Source of the DNA: Pristiophorus japonicus
Taxonomy: Eukaryota
NCBI RefSeq assembly: GCF_044704955.1
Contig: NC_091995.1
Coordinates: forward strand, 11,160,001 to 11,224,000
Length of the DNA: 64,000 nt
Direction: 5' to 3'
The notes under the pieces are model-generated. The model was given only the letters and a program-made list of their open reading frames with translations. It ran no database searches and had not been told where the DNA came from. Positions 13,927-63,041 of this stretch are shown here, piece by piece. The position numbers were made by a program, and so were the translations under genes. Numbering within the stretch: the first letter of the stretch is position 1; each line of letters opens with the position of its first letter.

Positions 13927-14339
13927 TCACAAAGCGAATATTCCAAAGAAGCTCTTTCCTTGGGAGGCGTCCACATATCCCACAGACTTCTCACTCACCC
14001 TGGAGAAGATCTGATCTCCTGCTTCAAACTCAAAGACAGCTCCCTGGTAGGAGGTCTTGTACCAGGTTTCTGTGCGTGGACCATATTGGCAGGCGGACTT
14101 GATGGCTTTCAGGAGCAAAGCTTCCTCCGGATAGCTCGGTGAGAACTTGACGAGTTCGTGGCTCAGGAAGATGCTGTTGCCCTGGCAGTCCCCGCTGTAG
14201 AAGACCACCTGGGTGTAGACAAAGTACTGACCGGGGGTCTTGATAATGAATCTGTTGTCCCTGAACTCCACCCTCTCGACGAAGGTGGAGTCTACCAGAT
14301 CCTGCCAAATCACCTTCTCTCCTTTTAAGGTCTTAGATG
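13927..14339 (-). CDS. TNF: TNF copy A exon 4 (TNF homology domain)
   Basis: Acceptor CTCTCAG|CA, ASKTLKGEKVIWQD...FFGIFAL*. Confidence 0.92.
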
Positions 14340-17300
14340 CTGAGAGGAGGTGAGAGAGACAGAGGGAACATTGTAAGAATGGATTAAGTTACATGGTTGG
14401 TTAATATTCTTCCTGTTACAACATTTTCTCAAAGGATGTTGTCATGTATGCACCTGTGAATATGCTCATAGGTTTATGGAGCTGTTGCAGGTGGCCATTA
14501 ACTGGTCTAGGTAGCGGGCGGTCGAGGGGGCCGTTCAGCATGAATGCCTACGTCTCTTCCACGGCTACGTTCGCGCCAGGGCGTCCCTGGAGATGGAGCA
14601 CTCGGTGTCCACCGGTACGCTCGCGGCCTTCCGCGAGAGGTGATCGCCGGAGGGACTGGAGTGCATCATCACCCCCGGCAACCAAATTTGAATTTGATTT
14701 AATGTTTTAAAGTTTAATTTGTTTTAATTGCCGGGTTTTAGTGTCCCCCTCCCCTTTTATAGGGGGCACTTGTAAATTAGATGATTTTAATGCCCACAAA
14801 AAAAATCACAAAAAACCCCCCCAAATAAACCACAAAAAAAAACAAAATAAAAAGAGGGCAGTTAAAAGTGTCTGGAGTGTCCCCCAGATTGGGGGGCATT
14901 CGATCTAATGTTTATTGTGTGCCCCCCCCCCCCCAAAAGAGTTATAGAGCTGTTGCAGGTGGCCATTAACTGGTCCAGGTAGCGGGCGGTCGAGGGGGTC
15001 GTTCAGCACAAATGCCTACGTCTCTTCCACGGCTACTTTCGCGCCAGGGCGTCCCTGGAGATGGAGCATGCGGTGTCCACCGGTACACTTGTGGCCTTCT
15101 GCAAGAGGTGGTCGCAGGAGGGACTGGAGTGCTTCATCACCCCGGCAACCAAATTTTACTTTTAAGGTTCACTTGTTTAAGGTTCATAAGGTTTTATTGT
15201 TAATTTGTGTGTTCTAGTGCCCCTTTAATGAGGGGGCACTCGGCTTTATCCGTTAACCAAAATAGTTGTAGAGCAGTTGCATTGTGAGTGGCTTAGCCAG
15301 TCATGTGATGTTCACAAGCCTCAATAAAACCCCAATCAGTTGGGTCTAGGTCATCCATGATGAGGTATGCGGTTGTGAGCCTGGTGGATGAGCTGGTAAT
15401 GTGTAGTGTGATTGTTAAACCTTTGTTAATAAAACCAATTAATTCTTGATAGCAATGTGTTGCTATGAATTCTTAAGCAAAGAACCCATGAAGCAAATAC
15501 ATTACAGATGTGCTGCCACATTTGTATCTGTTTTATATTAAGGTCTCTTTCATGGCTCTTTCGAAACTATTCTGGCCCCTACTGCCAAAATGCAAGAGCT
15601 TTCCATTTCCAATGCAAGCTATCTTAGGTCTCCTCAAAACAAAACTGGCAACTTGTGCTAAATAATGGGCTATTTTCTGCCACGAACAATTGGATTAAGG
15701 CCACCCAATCTCATTTCACATTGGTTCCTTAAAGGCAGCATAGGAAAAGAAAGAAAGACTTGGATTTATACAGTGCCTTTCATGAACATCGGATGTCCCA
15801 AAGTGATTTACAGCAAATGAAGTACTTTTTTGGAGTGTGGGAATGTGGGAAATGCGGCAGCAATTTGCGCACAGCAAGCTCCAAGCCGACAGCAATGCGA
15901 TAATGACCAGATAATCTGATCTTGTTATATTAATTGAGGGATAAATATTGGCCAGGACACCGGTGATAATCCGATAATTATGAGGTAATTGCATTTGGTG
16001 AGGTCTAACAAGGCACAGGAATACACATTAAATGGTATGATGCTGAAAAATGTAGAGGAACAAAGGGTCCTTGGAGTACAGGTCCACAGATCCCTGAAGG
16101 TAGAAGGCCAGGTAGGTAAAGTGATTAAGAAGGCATGGAATGCTTGCCTTTATTAGTCGAGGCATGGAATACAAGAGCAAGGAGGTTATACTTCAACTAC
16201 ATAAAACACTGGTTAGGCCGCAGCTGGAGTACTGCGTGCAGATCTGGTCACCACGTTGCAGGAAAGATCTGATTGCACTGGAAAGGGTGCAGAGGAGATT
16301 TACAAGACTATTGCCTGGACTGGATAATTTTGGCTATGAGGAAAAATTGGAGATGCTGGGTCTGTTTTCTTTGGAACAGAGGAGGCTGAGGGGAGACCTG
16401 ATTGAGGTGTATAAAATTATGAGGGGCCTGGATAGAGTGGATAGGACGGACCTGTTTCCCTTGGCAGAGGGGTCATTAACCAGGGAGCATCGATTTAAAG
16501 TAATTGGGGGGAGGTACAGAGGAGATATGGGGGGAAATTGCATTACCCAGAGGGTGGTGGGGGTCTGGAACTCACTGCCTGAAGGGGTGGTAGAGGCAGA
16601 AACCCTCACCACATTTATAAAATACTTGGATGTGCACTTGAAGTGCCGTAACCTACAGGGCTGTGGACCAAGAGCTGGAAAGTGAGATTAGGCTGGATAG
16701 CTGTTGGTCGGCTGGCGCGGACACAATGGGCCGAAATGACCTCCTTCCGTGCTGTAAATTTCTAATATGATTCTATGATAGCTCCCGCACTCTTCTTCAA
16801 AATAGTGCCATGGGATCCTTTACATCCACTTGAGAGAGCAGACGGGGCCTCGGTTTAACGTTTCATCCGAAAGACGGCACCTCCGACAGTGCAGCGCTCC
16901 CTCAGTCCTGCGCTGAAAGAGGAAATCAGAGTTGCACCCCAGACCTGACGCAACAATGCGTAAAACAGCGGGCCATCCAGCACCCCCAGGCTTTTCAGGG
17001 TATTTTCCCAACCCTGACCTCCCTTTCAGTATACCTCATCCATGTGCCATTTGTGGTCAATATACGAGTGCGGATAGGAAAATAGTTTGGAGACTGACGG
17101 GTAGATTTCCCTATTCCTACATCGTGGCTTATTGGGTTCCCTGGGCATAGAATATACAGGAGCTACATGGACAGAACTGTAGAGGTTCATAGCACTGAAG
17201 GGGACCATTCGGCCCATCGTTTCGGTGTCGGCTCTTTGCTAGAGTAAACTAACAACAATAAGTAGTATTTATATAGCGCCTTTCACAGGAGTATTATGAG

Positions 17301-19373
17301 ATTACAAATTTGACACCGAGACGCATAAGTAGAAATTAGCGCAGGTGACCAACAGCTTGGTCAAAGAGGTAGGTTTTAAGGAGCGTCTTGAAGGAGGAAA
17401 GAGAGGTAGAGAGGCGGAGAGGTTTAGGCAGATAGTTCCACAGCTTGGGGCCCAGGCAACACCGATGGTTGAGTGATTATAATCAGGGATGCTCAAGAGG
17501 GCAGAATTAGAGGAGCGCAGACATCTCGGGGGAAGGGTTGTGGGAATGGAGGAGAATACAGAGATAGGGAGATGCGAGGCCTTGGAGGGATTTGAAAATA
17601 AGGATAAGAATTTTTAAATCGAGGCGTTGCTGAACCAGAATCCAATGTAGGTCAGAGAGCACAGGGGTGAGGGGTGAGCGGGACTTGGTGTGAGTTAGGA
17701 CATGGGCAGCCAAGTTTTGGATCACCTGTAGTTTACATAGGGTAGAATGTGGGAGGCCGGCCAGGAGCGCATTGGACTTGTCATGTCCAGAGGTAACAAG
17801 GGTGTGGATGAGGGCTTCAGCAGCGGATGAGCTGAGGCAAGGGCGGAGACGGGCAATTTTATGGAGATGGAAGTAGGTGGTCTTAGTTATGCTGCGGATA
17901 TGTGGTTGAAAGCTCATTTCAGGGTCAAATATGACACCAAGGTTATGAACCAAGCTAACTCCGTCCGCCCCATTCTCTCCCCATAGCTTCTGCACCAATT
18001 CCATTTTTTAATTAAGAGATGCAACGGTCTCTATTGCCTGTGGGAAATCATTCCATGCTCCATTGACCAATGGATTACAGAAGTTCTTCGAACCTCTCTC
18101 ACTCAATGTCAATTTTACACTGATGATCCCTCATTTCTGACTTCCCATTTCGGCCTGTGAAAACCCTGCAGAATTTAATGATCTACAACCTCTAAATTAG
18201 CAGCTGACTTGTCCGGAGATGGTTCACCCTCTGATGTGCCCGAGCCTCCCAATGCAGTAGAGCTGGACCTCAGCTTCCCATGTGCCCCACAGTAACGAGA
18301 CTGAGATAGGAAATGCAACCTGTGGCTAGCATTCCAATACACCATGTGACAAGCTGATGTTATCTGTGAGAAAAATCTTCCTTATATTCCTTCATCAGAT
18401 AAGGACTTACATAGGAATAAGAGGAGGCCATTCAGCACGATGAGTCTGTCCCTTCAATTGGATCACGGTTGATCTGTACCTTAACTCCATCCACCAGTCT
18501 TGGTGCCATAACCCTTAATGCACTTGCCTAACAAAACTCTATCAATCTCAGTTTTGACATTTTTAATTGCCCCCACCCCAGCCTCAACAGGGTGGGTGGA
18601 GAGAGGCCCAGATTTCTGTTACCCTTTGTGTGAAGAAGTGCTTCCTGACATCACCCCCTGAACGGCCTGGCTCTCATTTTAAGGTTCTGCCCCCTTGTTC
18701 TGAACTCCGTTCTCCCCTCCACCCCACCCCCCACCTCACCAGAGGAAATAGTTTCTCTCTATCTACCCGATTTGCTTCAGTTCAAATACGTTGACGATTA
18801 TTGGCTAAAATGCACACCTTAGCCAGCAAAATAAATCCTCCATTGATAACTTTTGAAAAGCCCATTAATATTAAGAATAGCCTCTTACCTGTCAGGTGAG
18901 CTGCTATTTTCCCCCTCGGGTCGTTTCCCAACTGCTTCATGAGACGAGGCAGACCTGGAAAAGAAAAGCCGGACTCTCAGTCGCTATCAAGGTGCACATG
19001 GACCGAAAATGACTGATAACGAGAGAGGGAGAGAGAGAGAGAGAGAGATAAAGAGAGATAGAGAGAGAAATGAANNNNNNNNNNNNNNNNNNNNNNNNNN
19101 NNNNNNNNNNNNNNNNNNNNNNNNNNNNNNNNNNNNNNNNNNNNNNNNNNNNNNNNNNNNNNNNNNNNNNNNNNNNNNNNNNNNNNNNNNNNNNNNNNNN
19201 NNNNNNNNNNNNNNNNNNNNNNNNNNNNNNNNNNNNNNNNNNNNNAGAGCGATAGAGAGAGAGACAGAAAGAGAGAGAGAGAAAAAGAGAGAGAGAGCAA
19301 GAGAGATTGTTAGAGAGCTAGAGAGAATTAGAAAGTGATTGATAAAGGGTGAGAGAGCAAGATCGATAGATAG

Positions 19374-19440
<67 letters not shown>

Positions 19441-21809
19441 GAGAATTAGAGAGTGATTGATAGAGAAAGGGGGAGTGAGAGAAATAGATAGATAGATAGA
19501 TGGAATTAGAGAATAATTGATAGAGAAAGGGGAAGAGAAAGATAGATTGATAGAGAGAGCACTCACTTGTGTTAACAGAAACTGTTGTTACAGTTGAATG
19601 ATTCATTAAGTCCTGTGATTGGCTAATCTCTGAGTTCAATGATACTTCCTGAAGAGGAAAGAAATTAAAATGTGAAATTCACCGCAAATTTCCACGTAAC
19701 ACAAGGCGACCCTCTGTACAAGCTTTAAGCCAGATCTACAAGCAGATTATCTGCACCACACAGAGGGCCCAAGTTTCGGCCTCAGTTGCTCCTGATTTTT
19801 TAGAGCAACTGGTGTAGAACGGAGTATCTTAGAAATTCAAATTCTCAGCATTTAGTTTGCTCCAGTTCTAGTCAGTTAGAACAGTTTCACTTTGGAACAG
19901 AATTTTTTTTTCAAAAGGGGGCGTGTCCGGCCACTTAAGCCTGTTTTCAAAGTTTCGGCAGTGAAAACTTACTCCAAACTAACTTAGAATGGAGTAAGTG
20001 AAGATTTTTGTACGTTCGAAAAAACCTTGTCTACACTTTAGAAAATCAGGCGTAGGTTACAAATTAGGCGTAGGGAATGGGGGGGGTTTAAAGGGAAGTT
20101 TACAAACATTAAACACTTCAGTTTTACAAATAAAGAGCCATCATCAATAATAAATGATAAATACATCAATAAATCAACCAATAAATCAATCAAAAAAAAT
20201 TAATAAAAAATATATTTTTTTAAATCAATAAATAAAATATTTTCTACTTACCGACTGCAGCACTGGGAGTCCTCCAACAGCATGCTGGGACGGTCCCCCC
20301 AATGTGTCTCTGTCAGTGTCTCTATCTCTCTATCTGTCTGTGTCTCTCACTCTCTGTCTGTCAGTGTCTGTGTTTCTGACAGCGAGGGGAGGGGCAGAAG
20401 GGTGGGGGAGGGGGAGAAGGGGAGGGTGGGGGAGGGGGAGAAGGGAGGGAGGGAGGGTGGAGGGGGTACAAGGGGGAGAGGGGGAGAAGGAGAGAGGATG
20501 TAGGGCGGGAGGGAAGGGGAGAGGATGTAGGGAGGGAGGGAAGGAGGGAGGGAACGAGGGAGGAGGGAGGGAGGGAGAGACGGAAGCAGAGAGGGAAGGA
20601 GAGGGGGGGAGGGAGGGAAGGAGAGGGAGGGAGGGAAGGGGAGGGAGGGAAGGAGAGGTGGGGGAGGGAGAGAAGGAGGCTGAACGGCCGGGCCCAAGAC
20701 CTCGGGCTAGATTTACAGGTAGGTGGCATCGGGTCTCGGAGGTCCGGAGGAGGAAGGGTGAGAGAGAGTCGCGGAGGTCCGGGGGGGGGGGGCGGAGAGA
20801 GAGAGTCGCGGAGGTCCGGGGGAGAGAGAGAGTCGCGGAGGTCCCGGGGGGGGGGAAGGGAGAGAGTCGCGGAGGTCGGGTCGCCGGTGGGGGGGGGAAG
20901 AGTCGCGGAGGTCGGGTCGCCGGGGGGGGGGGGGGGGCCGGAGGGAAGCGGGAGTCGAGTCGGTGTCGGGAGGAAGCAGGAGCTGGGCGTGGGAGCCTTA
21001 TTCACGCATCCCCAGTGAGGCCATTCAGCCAGGGCGAGGGGTTGCATGCTTCGGGCCCCTCCCACACAGTTTTGGGCGTCTGGAGCTACTGCACACGCGC
21101 GCCCACTGTAGCGTGCATGTGCAGAGGTCCCGGCACTGCTTTCAGCGCAGGGACCTGGCTCCGCCCCCAACAGCTCGTGCTGCGCCGCACCTGGCTGCAG
21201 AAGACCTGCAGGGAGCCGGAGAATCTGGAAGTTTTTTTTAGGCGCACTTTCTGGCGCGAAAAGTGGGCGTCCAGGTCCGGGCTGCGCCGTTATAGGCGCG
21301 TCCCGAAACTTGGGTCCAGAGACACTGGTGCATCCCAGACTCTGACTGACTCACATTATCATGATTGACAGTAGATAAAGAGTTCATCAGATAACCGACA
21401 TCTGTTTTTTTTCCATTGTATCTGTAAATCAAATGTAAATCAAATGCCCCCTTATTAAAGGAGCACTAGCACTGACAGTTTAAACAAATTAAACTTTAAA
21501 CCTTAAACGGTGAAATTAAAATTTGGTTGCCCGGGGTGATGATGCACTCCAGTCCCTCCGGCACCCGACTGCAGTTAGCTAACTCGCACGGAGACAGCTG
21601 AGTAATATCACGCCCTGAACACGGTTACACACCTGGTTTGAAGGTGGAACTCCCAGCTGACAGAGTAACAGGTAGGAAGATACAGCCAGCAAGCCCAGAA
21701 CAGCCACCGCACACAGAGACTGCCAGAAACAGCTCCTCTTGGAGTCTGTCCGCCTGCCGACAGCCTCTCCTCCATTCTCAAGGTCCAGCGGCATCTTCTT
21801 AACACTCAT
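13927..21809 (-). CDS. TNF: TNF-alpha-like ligand, copy A (4 exons: 21809-21633, 19648-19567, 18954-18889, 14339-13927; 245 aa)
   Basis: Exon lengths 177+82+66+413=738 nt, in frame, all introns GT-AG with phases 0,1,1 as in vertebrate TNF. Type II TM segment in exon 1. THD motifs AAHLT, W, GQYFVYTQVVF, KSAC, WYKTSYQGAVFEF, FFGIFAL. Orthology (TNF vs LT) is not phylogenetically tested. Confidence 0.85.
14440..15506 (+). mobile_element. Solo LTR with 5-bp TSD GATGT, carrying two tandem Tx1-like LINE 3' ends (~14490-14945 and ~14958-15268)
   Basis: TG...CA ends, perfect TSD 14435-14439/15507-15511; inserts translate to ...LFHGYVRARASLEMEH...AFRER..., L1/Tx1 ORF2 C-terminus-like. Confidence 0.7.
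15757..16915. mobile_element. DeuSINE (minus) interrupted by a CR1 3' fragment (plus, ~15985-16780)
   Basis: SINE halves rejoin across the CR1; CR1 RT C-terminal ORF 16140-16685 and TTCTATGA tail. Confidence 0.85.
17260..17950 (-). mobile_element. L2-clade LINE 3' fragment
   Basis: NLGVIFD...SFQPHIRSITKTTYFHLHKIARLRP...LQVIQNLAAHVLT...LHW. Confidence 0.8.
18408..18770 (-). mobile_element. CR1 3' fragment
   Basis: CR1 3'UTR in reverse orientation. Confidence 0.65.
18889..18954 (-). CDS. TNF: TNF copy A exon 3
   Basis: Acceptor TTTTCCAG|GT, LPRLMKQLGNDPRGKIAAHLT, donor GTAAGA. Confidence 0.85.
19020..19560. repeat. (GA)n/(GATA)n microsatellite in copy A intron 2, containing assembly gap 19075-19245
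   Basis: Direct inspection; 171 N. Confidence 0.95.
19567..19648 (-). CDS. TNF: TNF copy A exon 2 (stalk)
   Basis: Acceptor CTCTTCAG|GAA, EVSLNSEISQSQDLMNHSTVTTVSVNT, donor GTGAGT; positionally homologous to exon 2 of B and C. Confidence 0.75.
19765..21317. mobile_element. Non-autonomous PIF/Harbinger-type element in copy A intron 1
   Basis: TIRs GGGCCCAAGTTTCGG / CCGAAACTTGGGTCC, 3-bp TSD AGA, empty site present in the B/C introns. Confidence 0.85.
21445..21565 (-). mobile_element. Short Tx1-like 3' end in copy A intron 1
   Basis: Reverse complement of GGAGGGACTGGAGTGCATCATCACCCCGGGCAACCAAATTT, seen also at ~14650 and ~15120. Confidence 0.65.
21633..21809 (-). CDS. TNF: TNF copy A exon 1 (cytoplasmic tail + TM)
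   Basis: ATG at 21809, MSVKKMPLDLENGG...LCAVAVLGLLAVSSYLLLC...PSNQ, donor CAG|GTGTGT. Confidence 0.85.
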
Positions 21810-21899: not shown

Positions 21900-22130
21900 T
21901 GTATATACCACATGATTCTGGAAGAACCCATGAGTAGGTGTTAGGCAATCGGAAAAGAGAATACCAACCTAGCATTTGGAAAGTGTCGAGCTCCCCCACC
22001 TCCACATACAGGAAGTGAAAGCCCAGCCTCAGATCCCACACTGAATGAACAAGGCCCCCAAAATCTGCACTCTCGCACTTTTTGTATGGCAGGGAAACCC
22101 AGACATTGCAGGCTAGATGATAAACGAAAC
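21900..22130 (-). promoter_or_regulatory. Copy A putative promoter: TATATA (21902-21907), Ets-IRF composite GGAAGTGAAA (22011-22020), kB-like GGGAAACCC (22092-22100)
   Basis: Motif matches upstream of ATG 21809; region not alignable to the B/C promoters. Confidence 0.4.
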
Positions 22131-24248
22131 ACTGCCACTTCAGCAATGTTCTGCTGGCAGACGGTACGGGGGTGTGTGTGGGGTAGAGGCAGAGTCTAAC
22201 AACAGGAGAAAAAGGTGACAGGTCACCGCATGGTTGACAGCGTGTGACCAGATTGTGTGACGAGGCTACGGACCAAGAGCTGGAAAATGGAATCAGGCTG
22301 GATAGCTCTTTGTTGGCCGGCACGTATACGAAAGGCCGAAATGACCTCCTTCTGTGCAGGGCCGGAGGAAGGGCCTGGTGGGCCTGGCAAACTGATCCAA
22401 ATGGGCCGATAGTTATGTTTGCTCATGTTCATTACATTACATATATGATTCTGATTCTGAGTATGAAAATATAGACCAGTATATTCAACAATGAAAGCAT
22501 ATATATCAAATGCATAAATTTAATAATAAATTACTACGGTGGACTTATACTATAATATATTATATATTAACATATATTTTATATATTAAACATACTATAT
22601 AAAAACAGTTAACTAATAGCACAGATAAATAGTAAAGATCTTGGCCCCTAGTTTCACCACGATTATACGCCTTTTTGGGCGTCCAAACGTTTTTTGGCGT
22701 CAAATCCTCAGTTCCCAATTTTCACCAAAGTTTGCACATCGGCGTGGAACATGTGCGCCAGTTTGAAATTTTTTGGAGCAGACACGAGTGAAAACAGGCT
22801 CGGATACTGTTTTTGAGCAATTAGGCGATTTTGGCCGTCCACGATTTTATACAGTGAATGTAAGGAAATCGGCACGGCGCACAAAAGGATACTGGGGCCG
22901 GGCAAAAGAAGACAAAATAAAGTAAAAGTACATGGATTTTTTTTTAGAACAGGGTACTCTGAAAATAACTCAGAAAGTAACTTCTGAGTTTTTGGAGCGA
23001 GACAATTTAATAAAGAAGTTTTTCGGAGGGAGGGAATCTGAAATAATTTTGCTGGGTTAGGGTTTGGGTGGTTCTTTTTGACCCAAATCGCGACTGTCCA
23101 TCCCGACACAATCATTGCTGGCTGGGCTCCAGGCACGGGTCGGGGGAGTGCCGGCTGTGCAGGGTCGCGGGCTCGGCCGGACACCAGCACCAGAGCCCGG
23201 GGAGAATCACTGTAATCAGCATCCGAAACGGAACGTTTTGTGCACAGGCAGGGCAGCAAGCTAGAAATCACCATTTGTCACAGGTGACCCAAGACAGTCA
23301 CTGTACAAACAAACGCACCGCAGATCAGGGCGTAGTCCAATCTAGGGCGTCACCCAGCCTTGTGCAGCATAATGGAGAGGAGAGGTATCGGTGATTTATC
23401 TGCATAATAACAATAATAATGGGTGCAATTTTTAGCATGCCTGAGGTGATAAGGGTGTTGGCCATACATGGCATGCACATGCAGAGGCGACGCATAATTT
23501 GATGCAGATATCGGGGAGACAGTTTGATGGTGAGGAGGCTTTACCCTCAGCGAGTCTATAGGGAGAGGCGCTCATACCTGCAATTAAGTGAGGCAGACTG
23601 CGTTTGCAGGCTGTGATTCAGAAAGGAGGTCATCACGGAGATGTGCCAACTAATCAGGGCAGACATACGGGCAAGAAGTGGAAGGAGGACCGCCCTACGG
23701 GTAGAAGTAAAGGTAACAGCGGCACTTGCCTTCTATGCTACGGGATCATTTCAAGCTTCAACTGGGGACGTATGCTTGATCTCGCAACACGCCACACATT
23801 GCTGCATGCCCCAGGTGACTGCTGCACTGTATGCCAAAAGGGAACAGTTCTTCACTTTCCCTATGACCACGCAGGCAATGAGAGACATGGCTGTGGGGTT
23901 CTCCAGAATTGCTGTCTTCCCCCGGGTACAGGGTGCCATTGACTGTATCCACATCGTCTTCAGAGCACCCTTGCAAGATTCCGAAGTTTACCGCAACAGG
24001 AAAGGGTCCCACTCCCTAAAATGTGCAGCTGGTGTGTGCGACAATCTGCAGCGGATCATGGCAATGGATGACAAATATCCCGGTAGCATCCACGATGCTT
24101 TCACCCGCTGTGAGAGCGTTATATCTGCGATGTTTCAGGAGCTGCCAGAAGGGCAGAGCTGGTTGCTCGGAGACAAAGGTTACGGGCTCGCCACCTGACT
24201 TATGACCCCCCCCCCCCCCCCCCCCTGCCTTCGCAATCCCCGCACTGA

Positions 24249-25019
<771 letters not shown>

Positions 25020-25020
<1 letters not shown>

Positions 25021-25367
25021 AGGCAGAGAGGTTGTTTCCACTGGTCGGGGAGACTAGAACTAGGGGGCACAGCCTCAAAATACAGGGGAGCCAATTTAAA
25101 ACCGAGTTGAGAAGGAATTCCTTCTCCCAGAGGGTTGTGAATCTGTGGAATTCTCTGCCCAAGGAAGCAGTTGAGGCTAGCTCATTGAATGTATTCAAGT
25201 CACAGATAGATAGATTTTTAACCAATAAGGGAATTAAGGGTTACGGGGAGCGGGCGGGTAAGTGGAGCTGAGTCCACGGCCAGATCAGCCATGATCTTGT
25301 TGAATGGCGGAGCAGGCTCGAGGGGCTAGATGGCCGACTCCTGTTCCTAATTCTTATGTTCTTATGT
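25020..25367 (+). mobile_element. CR1 3' end fused to the hnRNP retrocopy
   Basis: [20 protein letters not shown]..., (TTCTTATG)n tail. Confidence 0.9.
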
Positions 25368-30115: not shown

Positions 30116-30119
30116 CAAG

Positions 30120-35652: not shown

Positions 35653-36307
35653 TTTGTGTGGTGGCTGAAGGAGCATTAGGCAGAGCAGTATTCTGCAGTA
35701 GAGTAGACTAGGACCAATGTTGCAGCGTGAAATGTTCTGGCTGTGCTTCCCCCATGATGTTCCAGCCAGTTTACGATGGAGGGATAAAAATTGGGAATGC
35801 GCAAGAGGCCATAATTAGAGGAACGCCGGAAGCTCGAAGGGTTGTGGGGGCTGGAGGAGGTTACAGAGACAGAAAGAGGTGCCTGCTAAAATTGCAAAGA
35901 TTCAAGTTCACTTCACTGAATTGCAGGTGTGAAAGTTAGGAGAGAATTGAATGTGGTAACTTTGGTCAGATATATGAGACACAGAGTGATGAGTGGAATG
36001 GGGAGCTTGCACACAAAATGCACGGGTGAAACGTCAGTGAGATATCCGGAAGTATCTCCTTTCTCTCAGGGTTGTGACCCACTGGAAACATGTTTGTCAA
36101 AGAATGTGGTCAGTGTGGGTACACTACAATCCTTTAAAAAAGGATATGACATGTTCCTGAGGGGCGACGGGGGGGCGGTCAGTCAACGGCGGATTTGGGG
36201 TTAGTTAGACATGCCAAGTTCTTTGACACAGTTCATTTCCCATGGAAAGCAATGAATGGAAACCGAAGGGCAATATTCAGAAAAATCATTTCATGTCATT
36301 GAAATAT

Positions 36308-36394
36308 TTTATTAATTCCCGTCCATCTGCTCAGCAGTAAATAATCATATAAATAAATAATGTAAATAAATAACATAAATAAATAATATAAATA
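36308..36394 (-). promoter_or_regulatory. Copy B 3'UTR AU-rich element cluster plus AATAAA (36308-36313)
   Basis: About eight overlapping ATTTA pentamers and TTATTTATT nonamers on the minus strand, typical of the TNF class II ARE. Confidence 0.8.
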
Positions 36395-37301
36395 CAACAA
36401 TTAATGAACCTATTTAAGTAATAGGTTAAGTTCGCCAGAAAAATCCTGAACATGACATTAATTATGCCACTGAAAGACATCTTTAAAACAGATGTCATAG
36501 AGTTACATGAAACAAATATTTTTGTCAATCTCTACGATTAATATTCAACAGTCGAATATTCGAGGTACTATATTATGGGATGATTTCGGTAGTACTTGTT
36601 GAATACTCTTTATTTTTAATTGGATAAGTTTCGACCAATCACGCTCCAGGAAAGTGGCATCCCGCGAAAAGACAACCAATCGCTTTGTAGAGATGGAAAG
36701 CCAGTTGACTGCTTGGAGCTTGGCTGGCCATCATCACCAGACAGAAAGCTCAGGGTCTTTCCATGAACACCATCACTGAAGGTCCACGGAGACATTGGAG
36801 AAATATTGGAACACAAATAGATGGCAGGGCAGAGCCCATACTCTTCAAAGACCAATAACTGGTCACACGGGCTAACCAGTCTGAATATCAGACCCGATAC
36901 CCCACTTGCTCGCTCTTGGGATTGTTTAATTACTCTCTCCCAGAGGAGTACCAGTTGAAATAACATGACTAACAATAAATATTGATTAAATATGAATATT
37001 AAATATTAAGGAGATGCACAGACTCCCTCCAATCAGTAATGATCTGTGCTGCATTTGAACTGGACTGGCAGAGAGGAAAGGTCAGTGTGATAACCCTCCA
37101 CACTACCCAATCCTCCAACCTCAATACATTTGATATTTTCTGTCTCTACAAATCTTTAAATAAAATGGTGGAGAGATTAGTCCCTTTGTCCACTTAGTGC
37201 CAGATAGGACAATGTGCCCTGAACAGTTCCCACTGTATTTCAGTTTGAAATTCTCCATCAGTCATTGTTGTTGGCCATTCGCTGGAAGTAACTCGGGCTC
37301 C

Positions 37302-40255: not shown

Positions 40256-40766
40256 GAAACATAGAAACATAGAAAATAGGTGCAGGAGTAGGCCATTCGG
40301 TCCTTCGAGCCTGCACCACCATTCAATAAGATCATGGCTGATCATTCCCTCAGTACACTTTTCCTGCTTTCTCTCCATACCCCTTGATCCCTTTAGCCGT
40401 AAGGGCCATATCTAACTCTCTTAAATATATCGAACGAACTGTCATCAACAACTCTCTGTGGTAGAGAATTCCACAGGTTAACAACTCTCTGAGTGAAGAA
40501 GTGTATCCTCATCTCGGTCCCTTATGCTTAGTCTGTGTCCCCTGGTTCTGGACTTCCCCAACATCGGGAACATTCTTCCTGCATCTAACCTGTCCAGTCC
40601 CGTCAGAATTTTACATGTTTCTATGAGATCCCCTCTCATTCTTCTAAACTCCAGTGAATACAGACCCAGTTGATCCAGTCTTTCTTCATATTTCAGTCCT
40701 GCCATCCCTGGAATCAGTCTGGTGAACGTTCACTGCACTCCCTCAATAGCAAGAATGTTCTTCCTT
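40256..40766 (-). mobile_element. CR1 3' fragment immediately upstream of the copy B promoter
   Basis: (GAAACATA)n tail, RT C-terminus. Confidence 0.9.
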
Positions 40767-41299
40767 CTACAGTGCCTTTCGCCGCCTTCTGTTGTCTCAA
40801 AGCACTTTATAGTCAATGAATATGTTTTGAAGTGTAGTCACTGTTGTTATGTAGAAAACGGGCCAACAATTTGCGCACAGCAAGATCCCAGAAACAGCAA
40901 TGCGATACATGAGCAGATTATCTGTTTTGGTGATTTGGGTTGAGGGATCAATATTGATAGGCCACAGGTTGACCAATGTTGAGTAAGCACTTTTTCACAC
41001 AAAGATTATTGGAGCTCTGGAACTCACATCCCCCAAGAGGCTGTGGATCCTGGAGGAAAATTGGAGCTTTCAAGACTGAATTGGATGTCTTTTTATTGGG
41101 TTAGAGTGTCAAGCGATATGGAGAAAAAGCATCTAAATGGAGTTGAGATACAGATCAGCCATGATCTAACTGAATGACAGAACTGTCTCGACGGGCTAAA
41201 TAGCCTCCTCCTGTTCCTGTGTTCTCGGTGATCTTCACCAGGCAGTGTTATTCTACATCTAACCCGTGTTACACCTGACCTGGGACACTGCTGACTTTT

Positions 41300-41800
41300 T
41301 TTCATTCATTCCGGATGTGGGCATCGCTGGCAATGCCTACATTTATTGCCCATTCCTTATTGCCCTTGAGAAGGTGGTGGTGAGCTGCCTTCTTGAACTG
41401 CTGCAGTCTGTGTGCTGAAGATTCTCCCACAGTGCTGTTAGGGAGGGAGCTCCAGGATTTTGACCCAGCGATGATGAAGGAATGGTGATATACTTCCAAG
41501 TCAGGATGGTGTGTAACTTGGAGGGGTACTTGGAGATGGTGGTGTTTCCATCCGTCTGCTGCCCATGGTGTGCCGGTGGTGGAGGGAGTGAATGTTGAAG
41601 GTGGTGGATGGGGTGCCAATCAAGCGGGCTGCTTTGTCCTGGATGGTGTCGACCTTCTTGTGTGCTGTTGGAGCTGCACTCATCCAGGCATGTGGAGAAT
41701 ATTCCATCACACTCCTGACTTGTGCCTTGTAGATGATGGAAAAGCTTTGGCGAGACAGGAGGTGAGACACTTGCTACAGAATACCTAGCCTCTGACCTGG
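41300..41800 (-). mobile_element. LINE 3' fragment (CR1/L2 group, different family)
   Basis: IYKAQVRSVMEYSPHAW...DTIQDKAARLI. Confidence 0.7.
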
Positions 41801-41804
41801 CTAC

Positions 41805-44392
41805 AGAAACATAGAAACATAGAAAATAAGTGCAGGAGTAGGCCCTTCGAGCCTGCACCACCATTCAATAAGATCATGACTGATCATTCACCTCAGTACC
41901 CCTTTCCTGCTTTCTCTCCATACCTCTTGATCTCTTTAGCCATAAGGACCATATCTAACTCCCTCTTCAATATATCCAATGAACTGGCATCTACAACTCT
42001 CTGCGGTAGGGAATTCCACAGGTTAACACCTCTCTGAGAGAAGGAGTTTCTCCTCATCTCAGTCCTAAATGGCTTACCCCTTATTCTTAGACTTTGTCCA
42101 CTGGTTTTGGACTTCCCCAACATCGGGAACATTCTTCCTGCATCTAACCTGTCCAGTCCTGTCAGAATCTTATATGTTTCTATGAGATCCCCTCTCATTC
42201 TTCTAAACTCCAGGAAATGCAGGCCCAGTCGATCCAGTCTCTCCTCATATGTCAGTCCTGCCATCCCCCGCGCGAATCAGTCTGGTGATTCGCTGCACTC
42301 CCTAAATAGCAAGAATGTCCTTCCTCAGATTAGGAAACCAAAACTGAACACAAAATGCTAGATGAGGCCTCACTAAGGCCCTGTACTAATGCAGTAAGAC
42401 CTCCCTACTCCTATACTCAAATCCCCTAGCTATGAAGGCCAACGTACCATTTGCTTTCTTCACCGTCTGCTGTACCTGCATTCCAGCTTTCAATGACTGA
42501 TGTACCATGACACCCAGGACTCACTGCACCTCCCCTTTTCCTAATCTGCCACCATTCAGATCATATTCAGTCTTTGCGTTTTTGCCACCAAAGTGGATAA
42601 CCTCACATTTATCCACATTATACTGCATCTGCCACGTGTTTGCCCACTCACCTAACCTGTCCAAGTCACCCTGCAGCCTCTTAGCGTCCTCCTCACAGAT
42701 CACACTGTCACGCAGCTTGGTGTCATCTGCAAACTTGGAGATATTACAGTCAATTCCCTCATCCAAATCATTGATGTATATTGTAAGTAGCTGGGGTCCC
42801 AGCACTGAGCCCTGCGGTACCCCACTAGTCACTGCCTGCCATTCTGAAAAGGAGCCATTTATCCCAACTCTCTGCTTCCTGTCTGCCAACCAGTTCTCTA
42901 TCCATGTCAGTACATTACCCCCAATACCATGTGCTTTAATTTTGTAAACCAATCTCTTGTGTGGGACCTTGTCAAAAACCTTTTGAAAGTCCAAATACAC
43001 CACATCCACTGGTCCTCCCTTGTCCACTCTACCAGTTACATCCTCAAAAAATTGCAGAAAATTTGTCAAGCAGGAATTCCCTTTCATAAATCCGTGCTGA
43101 CTTGGACCGATTCCCGCCACTGCTTTCCAAATGTGCTGCTATTTCACCTTTATTAATTGATTCCAACATTTTCCCCCGACTGATGTCAGGCTAACCGGTC
43201 TATAATTACCCGTTTTCTCTCTCCCTTCTTTCTTAAAAAGTGGTGTTACATTAGCTACCCTCGAGTCCATTGGAACCGATCCAGAGTCGATTGACTGTTG
43301 GAAAATGATCACCAATGCATCCACTATTTCTAGGGCTACCTCCTTAAGTACTCTGGGATGCACTATCCGGCCCTGGGGATTTATCAGACTTCAATTCCAT
43401 CAATTTCCCGAACACTATTTCCCGCCTAATAAGGATTTGCTTCAGTTCCTCCTTCTAATTAGACCCTCGGTTCCCCAGTATTTCCGGAAGTTTATTTGTG
43501 TCTTCCTTCGTGAAGACAGAACCAAAATATTTGTTAAACTGGTCCGCCATTTCTTTGTTCCCCATTGTAAATTCACCTGAATCTGACTGCAAGGGACCTA
43601 CATTTGTTTTCACTAATCTTTTTCTTTTTCTCTTCACATATCTATAGAAGCTTTTGCAGTCAGTTTTTATGTTCCCAGCAAGCTTCCTCTCATACTCTAT
43701 TTCCCCTTCCTAATTAAACCCTTTGTCCTCCTCTGCTGCATTACAAAATTCTCCCAGTCCTCAGCTTTGCTGCTTTTTCTGTCCTATTTATATGTCTCTT
43801 CCTTGGATTTAACACTATCTTTAATTTCCCTTGTTAGCCACGATTGAGCCACCTTCCCTGTTTTATTTTTACTCCAGACAGGGATGTACAATTGTTGAAG
43901 TTCATCCATGTGATCTTTCAATGTTTGCCATTGCCTATCCACCGTCAACCCTTTAAGTATCACTCACCAGTCTATTCTAGCCAATTCATGTCTCATACCA
44001 TCGAAGTTACCTTTCCTTAAGTTCAGGACCCTAGTCTCTGAATTAACTGTGTCACTCTCCATCTTAATAAAGAATTCTACCATATTATGGTCACTCTCCC
44101 CCAAGGGGCCTCGCACAACAAGATTGCTAATTAGTCCTTTTTCATTACACATCACCCAGCCGAGGATGGCCAGCCCACTAATTGGTTCCGCGACATATTG
44201 GTCTAAAAAAAAACATCTCTAATACACTCCAGAAAATCCTCCTCCACCACATTGCTACCAGTTTGGTTAGCCCAGTCAATATGTAGATTAAAGTCGCCCA
44301 TGATAACTGCCATACCTTTATTGCATGCATCACTAATTTCTTGTTTGATGCTATCCACAACCTCACTACTACTGTTTGGTGATCTGTACACC
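41805..44392 (-). mobile_element. 5'-truncated CR1 (EN + RT)
   Basis: [36 protein letters not shown], tail. Confidence 0.93.
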
Positions 44393-46865
44393 AACAGCAA
44401 AAAGCCTACTACGCACCAAGAATATAGTTGGCACCGAGTTTTTGTCCAACAAATAAGATATAACATGGAAAGGATGGTGAAGGCCCTGGAACTGGTAGCC
44501 AGGAAGACTGGTGGCAGAGGGCTCCCAGTGGTCCCGGAGCATGGCACTGCATGCCATTGCCAACCACCTCTGGACCGTCCACTCCCGTATCCATCCAAGC
44601 AGTGTTTCAGCCGTCATTCCCCCCGCCCCCCGCAATGAAGCATCACCTGAGGAGCTCCTTGGCCAGGTGGCTTGGAGTCAGGAGGGGAAGGGGAAGGGGT
44701 AGAGGTGAGGAGGAGAAGTGACGGAGGGGGCCAACAGTTGTTTTTTACAGAAATAGTGATGATTTCAGACAAATGTTCGGTTTAAATGGTTTTTATTTCA
44801 CAAAACCTTGTTGCGCATTGGCTCAGATAGTTGCACCGTTACACGTTGGTGAATCCTCAACATCAAAGGTTATAATGATACTTAACTTCAATCAACTTAA
44901 ACTTTAACTGGCACCAAGGTGATGGCCACCATTGATGTATCACCTACACACACAGCAGTGTGTCAGCCTTGTCAAGATCACCAACGTTCTTTCAGGCAAA
45001 GTGATCATTGATGAGCTCCTGACATAAAGTTCTTGCAGCTATCATGCCACCTTGGGCCCATTCATGCGGTCTACAGCGGGGTGGGGGTATGTCTTCAGCA
45101 TCAGCCTGATTGTCTTGGCCGATGTCAGCATCCGCCTTCTTGTCCTCCTCTACCTCTCTCTGGTTAGGTGGACTATCAGACTCATCAGGCAACTCTTGTC
45201 CCTCGTGATAGCCAAGTTGTGCAGTATGGAACACACCACCACGAATTGAGCTACCTGCTCAGGCTGGTATTGGAGCTCACCTCCTGAGTGGTCCAAGCAT
45301 CTAAAGCACTGCTTAAGCACTCCAATGGTTTTCTCCACGATATTGTGAATGGCTCTGTGGCTCTTGTTGTATCGCCTCTTGGCTTCGGTGTAGGTGTCAC
45401 GCAGGGTGGGTCATCAGCCAGGTGGCAAGGCCATATCCTTTTGTCACCAGCCATCCAACATTGACCTTGTGGCTGATTGTTGAACAAGTCAGATACAGTG
45501 CTGTCACACAGGATGTGAGCATCATGGATGCTGCCCGGAAATTGAGCGTTCACTGCCAACATGATTTGCTGGTGGTCGACAACCAGCATTCAGGGAGTGG
45601 ACATTCAGGGAGTGGATTCCATTGCGGTTCCTGAAAACCTCTGCATCCTGAAAAGCTGCCAACTTCACGATGTGCATGCAGTCTATTGCTCCCTAAACCT
45701 TAGGGAAGTTTACAATTCTGGACAATCCTCGAGCCCTCTCACTCTGTGCCTCCCTGGAAGCTGATCACGTCCCTTCTGTGTGCACACAGGGCTTCTAATG
45801 TTGCAATGTGTGGCATGCTGAGAAAGTCTGCATATGTCTCCAGCTGTGGCCTCTAAAGGACCCGACGCGTAGAACGACAGTGCGTGGTGACTTTGACCTC
45901 CACAGACAGTGCGGTACTGATGGTGCTGGCAGGCTGCAGATCTCCCCTTATGAGCTGGCATACCTCAGTGATAACCTCTTTGTGGAAGCGCAGTCCCCGA
46001 AGGCAGGTGGTGTGGCAAATCAAGGTAAGAATGCTTCTCCCTGTATTTGCGGGGAGTGTAATGTCTGGTCCTTCGCATCTGTCCGTCACGTCTTACATTG
46101 GGCACATAATGCTGTGGAGCGTAACTTCGGGTCTGAGTCTGCTGCATGTAATTGGGCATCAAGAGAGGGTGAAAAAGGACAGGCCCCATTGCAGTAGCTC
46201 TCTGTTTTCACCGATTGGTCACAAACAATGAATGTCCCGACGAATGCACCTATTCAATTCCAATTGGTCACAGTATGGCCAAGATGTTTGTAGAGATGTT
46301 CACATCAACTCCAACAACCTCCAGAGTACATCCAAACTCTCCCGAGGTTGAAGCAAAGCAGCCTTTTAAAGGATGCGACATGTGATGTAGAACATGGCGT
46401 CCAAAACGCGGTGATTAGTTCCAGTTCGTTCCACATTTTCTGGTCTTTTTTTTGGATGAGCGATATTGTGGGTGATATGTGTGTGAGGTCGTGAAAGTGA
46501 TGTTGGGCGATCTCATGACCGCTAGTTTCGGTAAATGTTCTCTTTACGATTAAAAAAAGTGGGTGGGTGGTATTATTGAATCTTGCTGTTAAATCAGTGC
46601 GGTAATTAACGCTGGCCGATATTATGGCCATTGATTTCGCCCATTCTGATGATTCCGCCCGAAAAAAGTGGGCGGGTGGTATTATTTTGTCACAGCATTA
46701 AGAATATGGGGAAAGTAATGCTCAGTGATAAGTTTATGAAAAAAGGGCATCAGTTTCCATTTTGTGGCTAAATGAGTGATTGTATCGGCGTTGTTCGTCA
46801 TTTCAGCGGTAAAATGGGCATTAAGTGGGTGTTCAGCATGCAAATAAAGTAGAGGTTTTAGCCCC
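44393..46865 (-). mobile_element. Degenerate Harbinger transposon (transposase on -)
   Basis: [39 protein letters not shown]; TIR-like end GGTTTTAGCCCC. Confidence 0.8.
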
Positions 46866-59206: not shown

Positions 59207-59381
59207 CAGATTCCCGATCACTGATCCCTTTCTCAGATTCCCAATCACTGATCCCACTCTCAGATTCCCAATCACTGATCCCACTCTCAGATTCCCAATC
59301 ACTGATCCCACTCTCAGATTCCCAATCACTGATCCCACTCTCAGATTCCCAATCACTGATCCCACTCTCAGATTCCCAATC
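59207..59381. repeat. 27-bp minisatellite (~6.5 x AGATTCCCAATCACTGATCCCACTCTC)
   Basis: Direct inspection. Confidence 0.95.
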
Positions 59382-59519
59382 TACTGGTACTCTATCTGAA
59401 TTGCAGGTTTGTAAACTTGTAAAATTCCTTCCCTCATCTGGAATCATTTCCCATGGAAAGCACTGAACAGAAACCAATGGGCAATACTCAGAAAGATTCA
59501 TTTCATGTCATTGAAATAT

Positions 59520-59620
59520 TTTATTTATTCCCGTCCATCAGCTCAGCAGTAAATAATCATATAAATAAATAACATAAATAAATAATATAAATACATCAAA
59601 TAATAAATATATTTAAATAA
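59520..59620 (-). promoter_or_regulatory. Copy C 3'UTR AU-rich element cluster plus AATAAA (59520-59529)
   Basis: Overlapping ATTTA repeats homologous to copy B. Confidence 0.8.
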
Positions 59621-60491: not shown

Positions 60492-60904
60492 TCACAAAGC
60501 GAATATTCCAAAGAAGCTCTTTCCTTGGGAGGCGTCCACATATCCCACAGCCTTCTCACTCACCCTGGAGAAGATCTGATCTCCCGCATCAAACTCAAAG
60601 ACAGCTCCCTGGTAGGAGGTCTTGTACCAGGTTTCTGCGCGTGGACCATATTGGCAGGCGGACTTGGTGGCTTTCAGGAGCAAGAATTCCTTCGGATAGC
60701 TCGGTGAGAGCTTGGTGAGTTCATGGCTCAGGAAGATGCTGTTGCCCTGGCAGTCCCCGCTATAGAAGACCACCTGGGTGTAGACAAAGTACTGACCGGG
60801 GGTCTTGATGATGAAACGGTTGTCCCTGAACTCCAGCCCCTCGACAAAGGTGGAATCTGCCTCATCCTGCCAAATCACCTTCTCTCCTTTTAAGGTTTGT
60901 GAAG
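60492..60904 (-). CDS. TNF: TNF copy C exon 4 (THD)
   Basis: ASQTLKGEKVIWQDEADS...FFGIFAL*. Confidence 0.92.
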
Positions 60905-63041
60905 CTGAAGGAAAAGAGAGAGGAAACAACATAAGGATGGAATAAAGAGAAGAATTGCATTTATATAACGTCTTTCACAACCACAAGTAATTCCTCAGTG
61001 CTTCACAGCCAATGAAGTACTTTTGGAGTGTCGCCACAGTTGTAACGTGGGATTTGCGACACAGCAAGCTCCCACATACAGCAATGTGATAATGGCCAGA
61101 CCATCTGTTTTAGTGACAATGATTGAGGGATGTATATTGGCCAGGACTGATTACTATCCAGTGAATCTTGTGCCATGTGAGAACAAGATTGGGTTTGGGG
61201 CATATACTCACTGCAATTAAATAGCCCACTGCCACTCTCAGCTCACACATCTAGAATGACCACTTCAGTGAAGCATTGAGCTCTCCTGCCACAGGGGAAA
61301 TCATAGAATGATACAGCACAGAAGGAGGCCATTTGGCCCATCATGCCAGTGCCGGGTCTTGGGTCGAGCTATCCAATTTCTCCCACTGCCCCTGCTTTTC
61401 CTCCACAGACCTGCAAATGTTTCCTGTGCTACAGTGGGAGTGGCTACCTTCAGGGCACAGAGTTATTAATACCGTTAAGAATAGCCTCTTACCTGTCAGG
61501 TGAGCTGCCATTTTCCCCCTCGGGTCGTTACCCAACTGCTTCATCAGACGAGGCAGACCTGGAAAAGAAAAGCCGGACTCTCAGTTGCTATCGGGATATA
61601 CATGGACCGAAAATGACTGATAACGGGAGAGAGAGAGAGAGGGAGAGAGAGAGAGATTGAAAGAGAGAGAGATTGATAGAGAGTGAGAGACAGATAGAGA
61701 TAGATAGAGAGACAGTGAGATCAATATATAGAGAGGGGGAGAAATCTAGAGAGAGAGAGATGAAGAGGGGTATTGATAGGGAGATTGATAGAGAGAGAGA
61801 TTGATAGAGTGAGAGAGATTGAGAGTGAAAGAGAGATAATGATGGATAGATAGTGTGATTGATAGAGAGATTGAAAGATAGTGAGAGAGATGGAGAGAGA
61901 GAGATCGATAGAGACAGACAGAAATACATAGATAATGAGATTCATAGTGACAGATGGAGAGAGTGAGATAGAGAGAGAGACAGAGGTAGAGAGGTAGAGC
62001 GAGAGAAAGGGAGATAATGATAGAGATTGATAGATATATAGAGTTTGAGAGAGAGGATGATGGAGAGACCATGAGATGTACTGAGGGAGAGATACAGAGA
62101 AAGAGAGAGATGGTGATAGAGGGTGATAGGGAGCGATTGATAGAGAGAGAGATCGGGATAGATTGATAGAGACAGATGTTGTTAGAGAGAGAGATTAATA
62201 CAGAGATTGATAGTGAGAGAGAGATTGACAGAGAGAGAGGTTGATAGACACATTGTTAGCGAGAGAGATCGGTGGAGGAGATGGACAGAGATTGTCAGAG
62301 AGCACTCACCACTGTTAACAGCGACTTTTGCCAGAGGCGAATGATTCCCTGAATCCTGTAATCGGGCTGTTTCCTTCAGAAATAAAACAAGGAAAGAGAT
62401 TAAAATGTGAAATTCGCCCCAACTTTCCATGAAACACACCGCGACCCTCTGTACAAAGGTTCAGGCCGGATCTGCCGGCAGCTTATGTGCATTACACAGA
62501 GACACAGGGCGACCCAGACCCTGACTGACTCTCACACTCCGGACTGACAGCAGACAGAGGCTTTGTCAGACAGTGAACTGCTGCTCACTAACTCGCTGGG
62601 CTAAAGCTGGATAAAATGCAGCATTGGTGACTGAGTCGCTGCATCTCTCCGATATAGAGCCGCCGAGATGTGGACAGCAGCAAAAGGCAACACCTGGATT
62701 GACTGGGTGAACACAGATTGTGGCTTCACAGGAGGCGGAGCAGCTCAGGCAAACACTGCCATAACCCCACAGCTTCACAGCACACTTGGAGAAGCCTCTC
62801 CCAGGGCTGAGAGCAGTCGAGTAAAGGCAACAAGAGACCACTTGCTCTGGCGTTTCCAACATACCTGGTTTGAAGGTAGAACTCCCAGCTGACAGAGTAA
62901 CAGGTAGGAAGATACAGCCAGCAAGCCCAGAACAGCCACCGCACACAGAGACTGCCAGAAACAGTTCCTCTTGGAGTCTGCCCGCCTGCCGACAGCCTCT
63001 CCTCCATTCTCAAGGTCCAGCGGCATCTTCTCAACACTCAT
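60492..63041 (-). CDS. TNF: TNF-alpha-like ligand, copy C (exons 63041-62865, 62373-62310, 61558-61493, 60904-60492; 239 aa)
   Basis: Same exon sizes as copy B, intact frame, GT-AG introns; 7 aa differences from B in exon 4. Confidence 0.88.
61493..61558 (-). CDS. TNF: TNF copy C exon 3
   Basis: LPRLMKQLGNDPRGKMAAHLT, AG/GT boundaries. Confidence 0.85.
61625..62300. repeat. GA/GATA low-complexity repeat, copy C intron 2
   Basis: Direct inspection. Confidence 0.9.
62310..62373 (-). CDS. TNF: TNF copy C exon 2
   Basis: ETARLQDSGNHSPLAKVAVNS, AG/GT boundaries. Confidence 0.78.
62865..63041 (-). CDS. TNF: TNF copy C exon 1
   Basis: MSVEKMPLDLENGG...PSNQ, donor CAG|GTATGT. Confidence 0.85.

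Follow-up and report, generated by a model that had tools for sequence, protein, structure and literature searches.

Three TNF-like genes and their array

Three intact genes of four exons lie head to tail on the minus strand of the analyzed sequence (a window of 64,000 nt from the sawshark Pristiophorus japonicus), as had been predicted. All their introns follow the GT-AG rule, and the open frames comprise 245 aa (gene A), 239 aa (gene B) and 239 aa (gene C). In gene A, the coding part of exon 1 (positions 21633–21809), specifying the cytoplasmic tail and the membrane anchor, is followed by exon 2 (19567–19648), which codes for a long, Ser/Thr-rich stalk of 27 aa, exon 3 (18889–18954), and the coding part of exon 4 (13927–14339), containing the TNF homology domain. 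The equivalent exons are at 39662–39838, 39107–39170, 38304–38369 and 37302–37714 in gene B, and at 62865–63041, 62310–62373, 61493–61558 and 60492–60904 in gene C; exon 2 is the same in both genes and codes for a short stalk of 21 aa, and exon 4 again contains the TNF homology domain. The original prediction also held for the contrast in size, with 7,883 nt from ATG to stop in A and 2,537 and 2,550 nt in B and C, and for the near identity of the ligand exon: the exon-4 peptides differ at 13/136 positions between A and B, 13/136 between A and C, and 7/136 between B and C, and all three match the Pfam family TNF (PF00229) with 99–102 bits (cut-off of 23). Models in the database coincide with ours for A and for two further copies, E and F, whereas those of B, C and another copy, D, splice the stalk otherwise. 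The long and short forms of exon 2 were considered as mutually exclusive exons, which was rejected: both types align as a single exon, and the flanks are common to them.

The trio represents half of the six near-identical copies in an eight-gene TNF-like array, on a contig that bears the MHC; the rest is hidden by the window edge, with three further copies (93–94% identity) and two older genes within 125 kb, and no additional copy in the 200 kb beyond F. The six copies lie beside the two older TNF/LTA genes, an LTB-like gene at 0.6 Mb (best match LT-beta, E 1.6e-20) and two further TNFSF genes. A check for MHC synteny was positive, with MHC class I matches at 40–57 Mb of the same contig; additionally, there is a weak match to a sialidase (neu1-like) 1.8 Mb from the array. 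Copies E and B have in common an inverted block of 9 kb, and C and F share 6 kb downstream, so that these copies appear recent. All six copies show a type II anchor after a short cytoplasmic tail (hydropathy peak of 2.3–2.6 from residue 32), and none has a signal-peptide-type start, their N-terminal windows being hydrophilic. The assembly is 5.9 Gb and rich in repeats, and a satellite of at least 100 kb lies around 120 kb past the last copy.

Control regions and the patchwork of identity

The inducible-type motifs (TATA, NF-kB, ARE) ascribed to B and C are present. Their proximal promoters (39941–39998 and 63144–63202, respectively, minus strand) contain a kB-consensus site, a CRE-like site and a TATA-like box; the TATA-like box is 108 nt and the kB-consensus site around 160 nt upstream of the ATG, although by our rough estimate a match to the kB consensus is expected by chance in about one of ten such promoters. 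Likewise, motif scans located an AU-rich cluster preceding a polyA signal downstream of both genes (36308–36393 in B and 59524–59620 in C, minus strand). The human TNF gene has four exons, a type II anchor, a kB site and an AU-rich UTR; it is thus resembled in exon number and anchor by the sawshark genes, and in the kB site and the AU-rich UTR by B and C.

On the same strand, gene A has a TATA-like box (TATATA) at −98 (21902–21907) and a kB-like 9-mer at −291 (22092–22100), lacks a proximal kB site, and shows a weak AU-rich region. Its promoter aligns with that of copy D (z = 7.5) and weakly with that of C (z = 2.0–2.5). The first 140 nt of its 3′UTR (13787–13926, minus strand) are 96% identical to those of B and C, and the likeness then stops abruptly, at what we infer to be the end of a conversion tract. 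Further downstream there is a conserved 28-nt element (12964–12991, minus strand), which copies B to E and the older, LTA-B-type gene G1 also possess; in A, a repeat at 13336–13690 has displaced it. Folding of this element was no better than that of shuffled sequences in 3/3 comparisons (z from −0.96 to 0.45). The promoter and 3′ end of A are diverged homologues of those from the other copies and not replacements; the predicted divergence of its promoter, 3′UTR and stalk stands. The extra length of A, in turn, is due to transposon and repeat inserts, including a transposon-like element of 1,553 nt in intron 1 (19765–21317), bounded by terminal inverted repeats and flanked by a 3-bp target duplication, at a position where copy D has an empty site, and multi-copy DNA that makes up 66% of intron 3.

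Identity between A and B/C was distributed as a patchwork. It was 93–98% over the final 45 nt of the 5′UTR, 97–98% in exon 1, 95–97% in exon 3 and 93% in exon 4. By contrast, it fell to 66% in exon 2, which codes for the stalk, to 81% over the end of intron 1 and to 81% or less in the introns overall, and it was at or near shuffle level at the start of intron 1 and in the distal 3′UTR. The difference between A and B amounts to 4/90 four-fold sites versus 21/109 positions at the end of intron 1 (Fisher p = 0.002), and their identity breaks off sharply 46 nt upstream of the ATG and 140 nt downstream of the stop codon. Within exon 4, 29 of the 45 informative site pairs were incompatible by the four-gamete test, and copy D combines the 5′ half of the long type with the 3′UTR of the B type.

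It had been proposed that regulation and shedding, and not the ligand fold, had diverged. The ligand core is indeed shared, and the ligands of the copies are 90–96% identical; however, that of A did not remain unchanged. In the exon-4 tree it has the longest branch of the six, and its private changes comprise 13 non-synonymous versus 5 synonymous. These include G22R, at a site where 33/33 relatives have Gly, and T79I, at a site with Thr in 32 of the 33 other rows, where the Ile is the residue found in human TNF in the structure-match alignment.

Family assignment and comparison with other sharks

The TNF array from the MHC of the white shark contains LTA-B, LTA-A and four LTA-C genes (PMC10751288, supplementary file 1, whose LTA-C naming follows Redmond et al., 2022), the last designated lymphotoxin alpha-c1 to c4 in RefSeq. 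An exon-4 tree of 40 rows, from which, as from all our trees, partial or mis-modelled proteins were excluded, placed the six sawshark copies on a side of 34 rows with white shark c1–c4, and G1 in a separate LTA-B-type clade of 6 rows (100/100). The best matches among solved structures were TNF (E 1e-21) and LTA (E 1e-17 to 2e-15), with TNF scoring 10–20 bits above LTA. Gene C matched LT-beta with E 3e-4, so that LT-beta is not its closest relative. A separate profile search yielded one bony-vertebrate row among 70. Nor does the trio correspond to the secreted lymphotoxin-alpha of mammals, since its membrane anchor begins at about residue 32; a signal peptide is present in human LTA (PMC4929537), unlike any of the sawshark copies. 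In published work on the whale shark expansion (PMC7674686, PMC11762692), TNF and LTA orthology is considered unassignable by sequence, and elsewhere such shark genes are named LTA. Of the rapid induction and ADAM17/TACE shedding that mark TNF-alpha in the strict sense, the sequence shows motifs only.

The white shark array shows the same order as that of the sawshark, with an LTB-like gene, two other TNFSF genes, two older TNF/LTA-like genes and then the LTA-C copies; likewise, two LTA-C copies are on one strand and the remainder on the other, and both species have long and short stalks. Its exon 4 is 68–72% identical to those of the present copies. The arrays differ in the number of LTA-C copies, six in the sawshark and four in the white shark, and in the stalk order, which is long, short, long and three short in the sawshark and, as inferred from accession order only, long, long, short, short in the white shark; if c1–c4 are in chromosomal order, the latter difference could have arisen by inverting the middle pair once.

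Cross-species comparisons were done at the protein level, and DNA comparisons within the P. japonicus genome. Across sharks, exons 1 and 4 clustered by species, whereas stalks clustered by long or short type. Using 27 shark rows, without rays and LTA-A/B-type rows, neither exon 1 (p-AU 1e-5) nor exon 4 (1.4e-4) was compatible with a clade of long-stalk genes, and the horn shark pair was rejected as a clade for the stalks (p 0.024). A later stalk tree of 23 rows, without three ultra-short stalks and near-duplicates, also rejected a clade of lamniform rows (p 2.5e-4) and was borderline for an orectolobiform clade (p 0.053). A clade of the sawshark genome's own stalks was not rejected with either set (p-AU 0.32 with 27 rows and 0.33 with 23), and a single split between long and short stalks, on the small basis of 21–27 aa, had weak support (72/61) and emerged only once the three ultra-short rows had been removed post hoc; the short stalk of B may consequently be a separate deletion and not an orthologue of the galeomorph short type.

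Within the bamboo and epaulette sharks, proteins with long and short stalks differ at 1/59 and 3/59 positions of exon 1 versus 17/19 and 14/19 of the stalk, while between these species proteins of the same type differ at 6/59 and 8/59 versus 4/26 and 3/20. The ratio of stalk distance to that of the rest was 1.4–2.7 in seven cross-species pairs and 5.6–14.6 in six pairs of paralogues from the same lineage. The stalk of A was most similar to a horn shark long stalk (16/27 identical residues, versus 9/21 with B), being equally close to it and to copy D; for B, the best outside match scores 40, versus 37 for A. The six ligand domains formed one clade in the exon-4 tree (100/99), as did the six exon-1 peptides. 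Exon 4 is far less homogenised in the white shark and the cloudy catshark (28–31 differences in ~137 positions). Copy number varies widely among sharks, with four short-stalk copies in the sawshark, four distinct short-stalk proteins in the horn shark and ten in the brownbanded bamboo shark. The matches from the sevengill shark comprised three long stalks but none of the short type; long-stalk genes are kept in at least six other shark genera.

Origin of the copies and significance

Bounded tracts that are closer within a species, together with other parts that follow the gene type, are what concerted evolution leaves, and this pattern is seen in the shark copies. The trio makes up three of six intact, membrane-anchored TNF/LTA-like genes (shark LTA-C) in an MHC-linked array. 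We consider it reasonably probable that A and B/C are paralogues of old types, in which gene conversion kept exons 1, 3 and 4 nearly identical while promoter, stalk, introns and distal 3′UTR diverged. Conversion would be the homogenising cause, possibly helped by the inverted orientation of copies, and the short-stalk type, kB-bearing here, would have been amplified repeatedly and probably duplicated recently to four copies (B, C, E and F). This amplification is the only one within the array that looks recent, and the original idea of a lineage-specific origin is not sustained, because the array, its order, strand pattern and stalk types occur in other sharks. The prediction is that B and C would be NF-kB-inducible, with short-lived mRNAs raising the acute cytokine dose. 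A, and D, would be controlled differently and carry a nearly identical ligand on a stalk that is longer and probably glycosylated; mixed trimers may form where copies are expressed together. A bolder version, which we regard as possible but favour only tentatively, is that of a modular array in which conversion maintains a single TNF ligand and anchor in each species. Fixed cassettes of promoter plus stalk, predating the split of the two shark superorders, would set when and how this ligand is displayed or shed, the short cassette having been amplified repeatedly.

A recent expansion in the sawshark lineage, followed by fast change of the promoter, stalk and UTR of A, would agree with the single clades of ligand domains and exon-1 peptides, with the clade of own stalks that was not rejected, and with the blocks shared by E and B and by C and F; yet it appears unlikely, because the non-coding DNA of A and B diverged far beyond their silent sites, with sharp edges, the stalk of A is as near to that of the horn shark as to that of D, and the white shark has the same array layout. 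An equally low probability attaches to birth-and-death evolution, with mostly redundant copies contributing dosage and an isolated A under relaxed selection and heading for loss: the excess of non-synonymous private changes in A, with G22R and T79I, its transposon-swollen introns, missing proximal kB site and weak AU-rich region, and the copy-number variation among sharks all point this way, but A retains an intact frame and splice sites, its Ile79 matches human TNF, and long-stalk genes persist in other genera.

The genes of the human TNF/LTA/LTB trio diverged long ago and are not known to be homogenised. That A, B and C independently re-invented its division of labour, as originally suggested, is very improbable, even though promoter and stalk types differ between copies and three variable residues (14, 67 and 71) correspond in the alignment to R32, V85 and T89 of human TNF, listed as receptor-selectivity sites. 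An LTB-like gene already exists 0.6 Mb away and TNFSF3 has been reported for sharks; additionally, the ligands are 90–96% identical, and every copy has the same anchor from around residue 32, with no signal-peptide-type start. Finally, haplotype duplicates or another assembly artefact, for which the size and repeat content of the assembly and the nearby satellite could be invoked, are hardly credible, since all copy pairs differ by at least 3% in exon 4, each copy has its own flanks, and the strand pattern agrees with that of the white shark.

The cluster as such is not new, since the white shark LTA-A/B/C array and tandems of shark TNFSF1/2 genes have been published. Published work (PMC7674686, PMC11762692) describes eight TNFSF1/2 genes in the whale shark, six of them in tandem beside 6p-type genes, and expansions in ten vertebrate lineages, taking the copies as independent duplications where we propose conversion; the words 'conversion' and 'concerted' are absent from the main texts of both papers, and stalk or promoter types did not come up in the text consulted. 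Among the titles listed in our literature searches there was none on shark TNF genes evolving by conversion or in concert, although Redmond et al. (2022, J Immunol) may discuss conversion. Types I and II of teleost TNF-alpha have similar bioactivity and different cell types and kinetics (PMC4929537), resembling the division proposed here for the shark copies; however, they are separate phylogenetic groups, type II being teleost-specific (PMC4929537), whereas the shark copies are in tandem and exchange exons. What is likely new is that copies that are probably old have membrane and ligand exons homogenised by conversion, whereas promoter and stalk remain particular to each copy.

Should the copies indeed be old and homogenised, trees of the ligand domain would count too many lineage-specific duplications in the TNF/LTA family of sharks and obscure the true orthology; this would bear on the division of roles between TNF and lymphotoxin in the ancestor of jawed vertebrates. 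The array also offers a natural experiment, since almost the same ligand comes with stalks of either length and behind different promoters, whose effect on shedding and inducibility could thus be compared directly.

An array of TNF-like genes

The three genes A (13927-21809), B (37302-39838) and C (60492-63041) lie on the minus strand, each with four exons, GT-AG introns and an open frame, and code for 245, 239 and 239 aa, respectively. All three pass Pfam TNF, have human TNF as their best match among solved structures and show a membrane anchor beginning at around residue 32; B and C, which are 91.6% identical across 4.6 kb, each contain a kB-consensus (NF-kB-type) site, a CRE-like site, a TATA-like box and an AU-rich cluster. 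The original prediction had thus described these genes correctly. Their exon 4 peptides differ at 13/136 positions for A-B and for A-C, and at 7/136 for B-C.

A genome search revealed six copies at 90-100% identity, all six intact, plus two older ones at 57% and 64% (G1 and G2), all inside 190 kb and in the order G1+, G2+, D+, E+, A-, B-, C-, F-; no further TNF copies were found in the 200 kb past F. Database proteins labelled Pristiophorus japonicus are identical to our models of A, E and F, and those for B, C and D have the same exon 4 with a differently spliced stalk. The array is real. Gene A is flanked by copies E and B, which make up an inverted duplication of ca. 9 kb (89-93%; contig G000:C19:11146000-11156000 and window 36233-45580) on which inversion and conversion might act.

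Three additional TNFSF genes are located 0.2-0.6 Mb off, one TL1A-like, one LT-beta-like and one without a clear best match, and the contig also has a cluster of MHC class I matches at 40-57 Mb. A parallel of the TNF/lymphotoxin trio, as had been proposed, is unlikely because there is an LTB-like gene nearby and every copy is anchored; TNFSF3 (LTB) is confirmed in sharks in PMC11762692. The expansion itself is already known, since the white shark table in PMC10751288 shows a layout matching that of the sawshark (LTB-like, TNFSF32, TNFSF33, LTA-B, LTA-A and four LTA-C, two per strand), and PMC7674686 and PMC11762692 report, respectively, eight TNFSF1/2 (LTA/TNF-type) genes in whale shark, six of them in tandem, and TNFSF1/2 expansions in ten lineages.

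Several repeats accompany the genes. A 41-bp satellite (7349-11735; ca. 107 copies, 93% matches) lies 2 kb past gene A, and a 27-bp minisatellite (59207-59386), directly past the polyA signal of C, also occurs in D, E and F and is absent from B. Both strands carry broken Gypsy-like frames for pol and integrase at 945-6563, and Harbinger-like transposase frames at 23617-25057 (+) lead into a Gly-rich stretch that resembles part of a retrocopied hnRNP A1/A2-type gene. A repetitive array of at least 100 kb starts ca. 120 kb beyond the last TNF copy (G000:C19:11359000-11464000). Nine intronless, near-identical sequences that match the MHC class I alpha1-alpha2 domain over its full length lie off the MHC contig at G000:C3:316.6-319.3 Mb, within open frames of 419-777 aa.

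Gene A and the patchwork of identity

Gene A had been regarded as rewired, which holds only in part: A has neither a proximal kB site nor a dense AU-rich cluster, but it retains TATATA at -98, a kB-like 9-mer at -291 and, at +936, a conserved 3' element. Its extra length is due to repeats, as intron 1 contains an inverted-repeat element of 1,553 nt and 66% of intron 3 is repeat DNA. Since the proximal kB site is present in G2 and absent in D, which shares with A the long type of exon 2-encoded stalk, its loss in the long type is plausible. The stalk of A is longer and richer in Ser/Thr (10 vs. 4) and N-glycan sequons (two vs. one), and shedding could be slower as a result. Exon 3 is common to the copies, and no cut site for shedding was established from the sequence. 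The nearest functional analogue is the set of teleost TNF paralogues, with like activity and different kinetics according to PMC4929537.

Exon 1 of A is 97-98% identical to that of B/C, exon 3 95-97% and exon 4 93%; the similarity extends over 46 nt of the 5'UTR and 140 nt of the 3'UTR and breaks off there. Identity is only 81% at the end of intron 1 and 66% in exon 2, and it is no higher than in shuffled sequence at the start of intron 1 and in the distal 3'UTR; in the promoter it is barely higher. Differences affect 4/90 four-fold sites vs. 21/109 intron sites (p=0.002). Selection on the protein could not keep silent and UTR sites so close, and recent exchange between old genes would be the simplest cause. 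D is a mosaic that combines a long stalk with an intron 1 and a promoter resembling those of A and with a B-type 3'UTR. In exon 4, 29 of the 45 informative site pairs are incompatible by the four-gamete test. Among the copies B, C, E and F, identity is 98-100% over intron 1 and exon 2 (window 39171-39661 and 62374-62864) vs. only 90-94% in intron 3, which suggests that the former region either underwent exchange recently or contains an element under constraint.

Stalk types across sharks

Stalks of full-length homologs were long (26-27 aa), short (20-21 aa) or ultra-short (15-17 aa). Exons 1 and 4 cluster by species, and a long-stalk clade was rejected for both (p-AU 1e-5 and 1.4e-4), whereas stalks cluster by type: the stalk-type label needs 2 changes vs. 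8.6 when shuffled, and a single one after dropping three ultra-short rows (support 72/61). Grouping of stalks by lineage was rejected for the horn shark pair (0.024) and lamniforms (2.5e-4) and was borderline for orectolobiforms (0.053), the clearest conflict between exons and stalk being the bamboo and epaulette shark quartet. The stalk of A is closest to one from horn shark (16/27). Nevertheless, this test is weaker for the sawshark genome because the best outside match of the B stalk scores barely above A and a clade of own-species stalks was not rejected (p 0.32-0.33). Relative to the cross-species rate, the excess in the stalk reached significance for A-B (p 4e-4) and was mild in the case of A-D (0.02).

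The amplified type is the short one, with 4/6 copies in this genome, four distinct proteins vs. one long in horn shark, and ten vs. one full-length long in brownbanded bamboo shark. This pattern is not universal among sharks, because sevengill shark has only long stalks among the matches, and two long ones occur in white shark as well as in cloudy catshark.

Ligand domain and mode of evolution

None of the 21 variable exon 4 positions aligns with the human trimer-core residues, which we take to be L57, Y59, Y119, F124, Y151, I155 and L157; mixed trimers among the copies are therefore plausible judging from the alignment. Position 22 is Arg in A vs. Gly in 33/33 other rows, and positions 14, 67 and 71 align with human R32, V85 and T89, given as receptor-selectivity sites in PMC8781899. 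With Arg at position 22 and 13 non-synonymous vs. 5 synonymous private changes, A would fit tuning of its ligand as well as decay.

The literature searched, a scope outside which Redmond et al. 2022 falls, yielded no account of exon-wise concerted evolution of these genes. The likely new point is that they have probably evolved in concert exon by exon, while retaining their promoter and stalk types.
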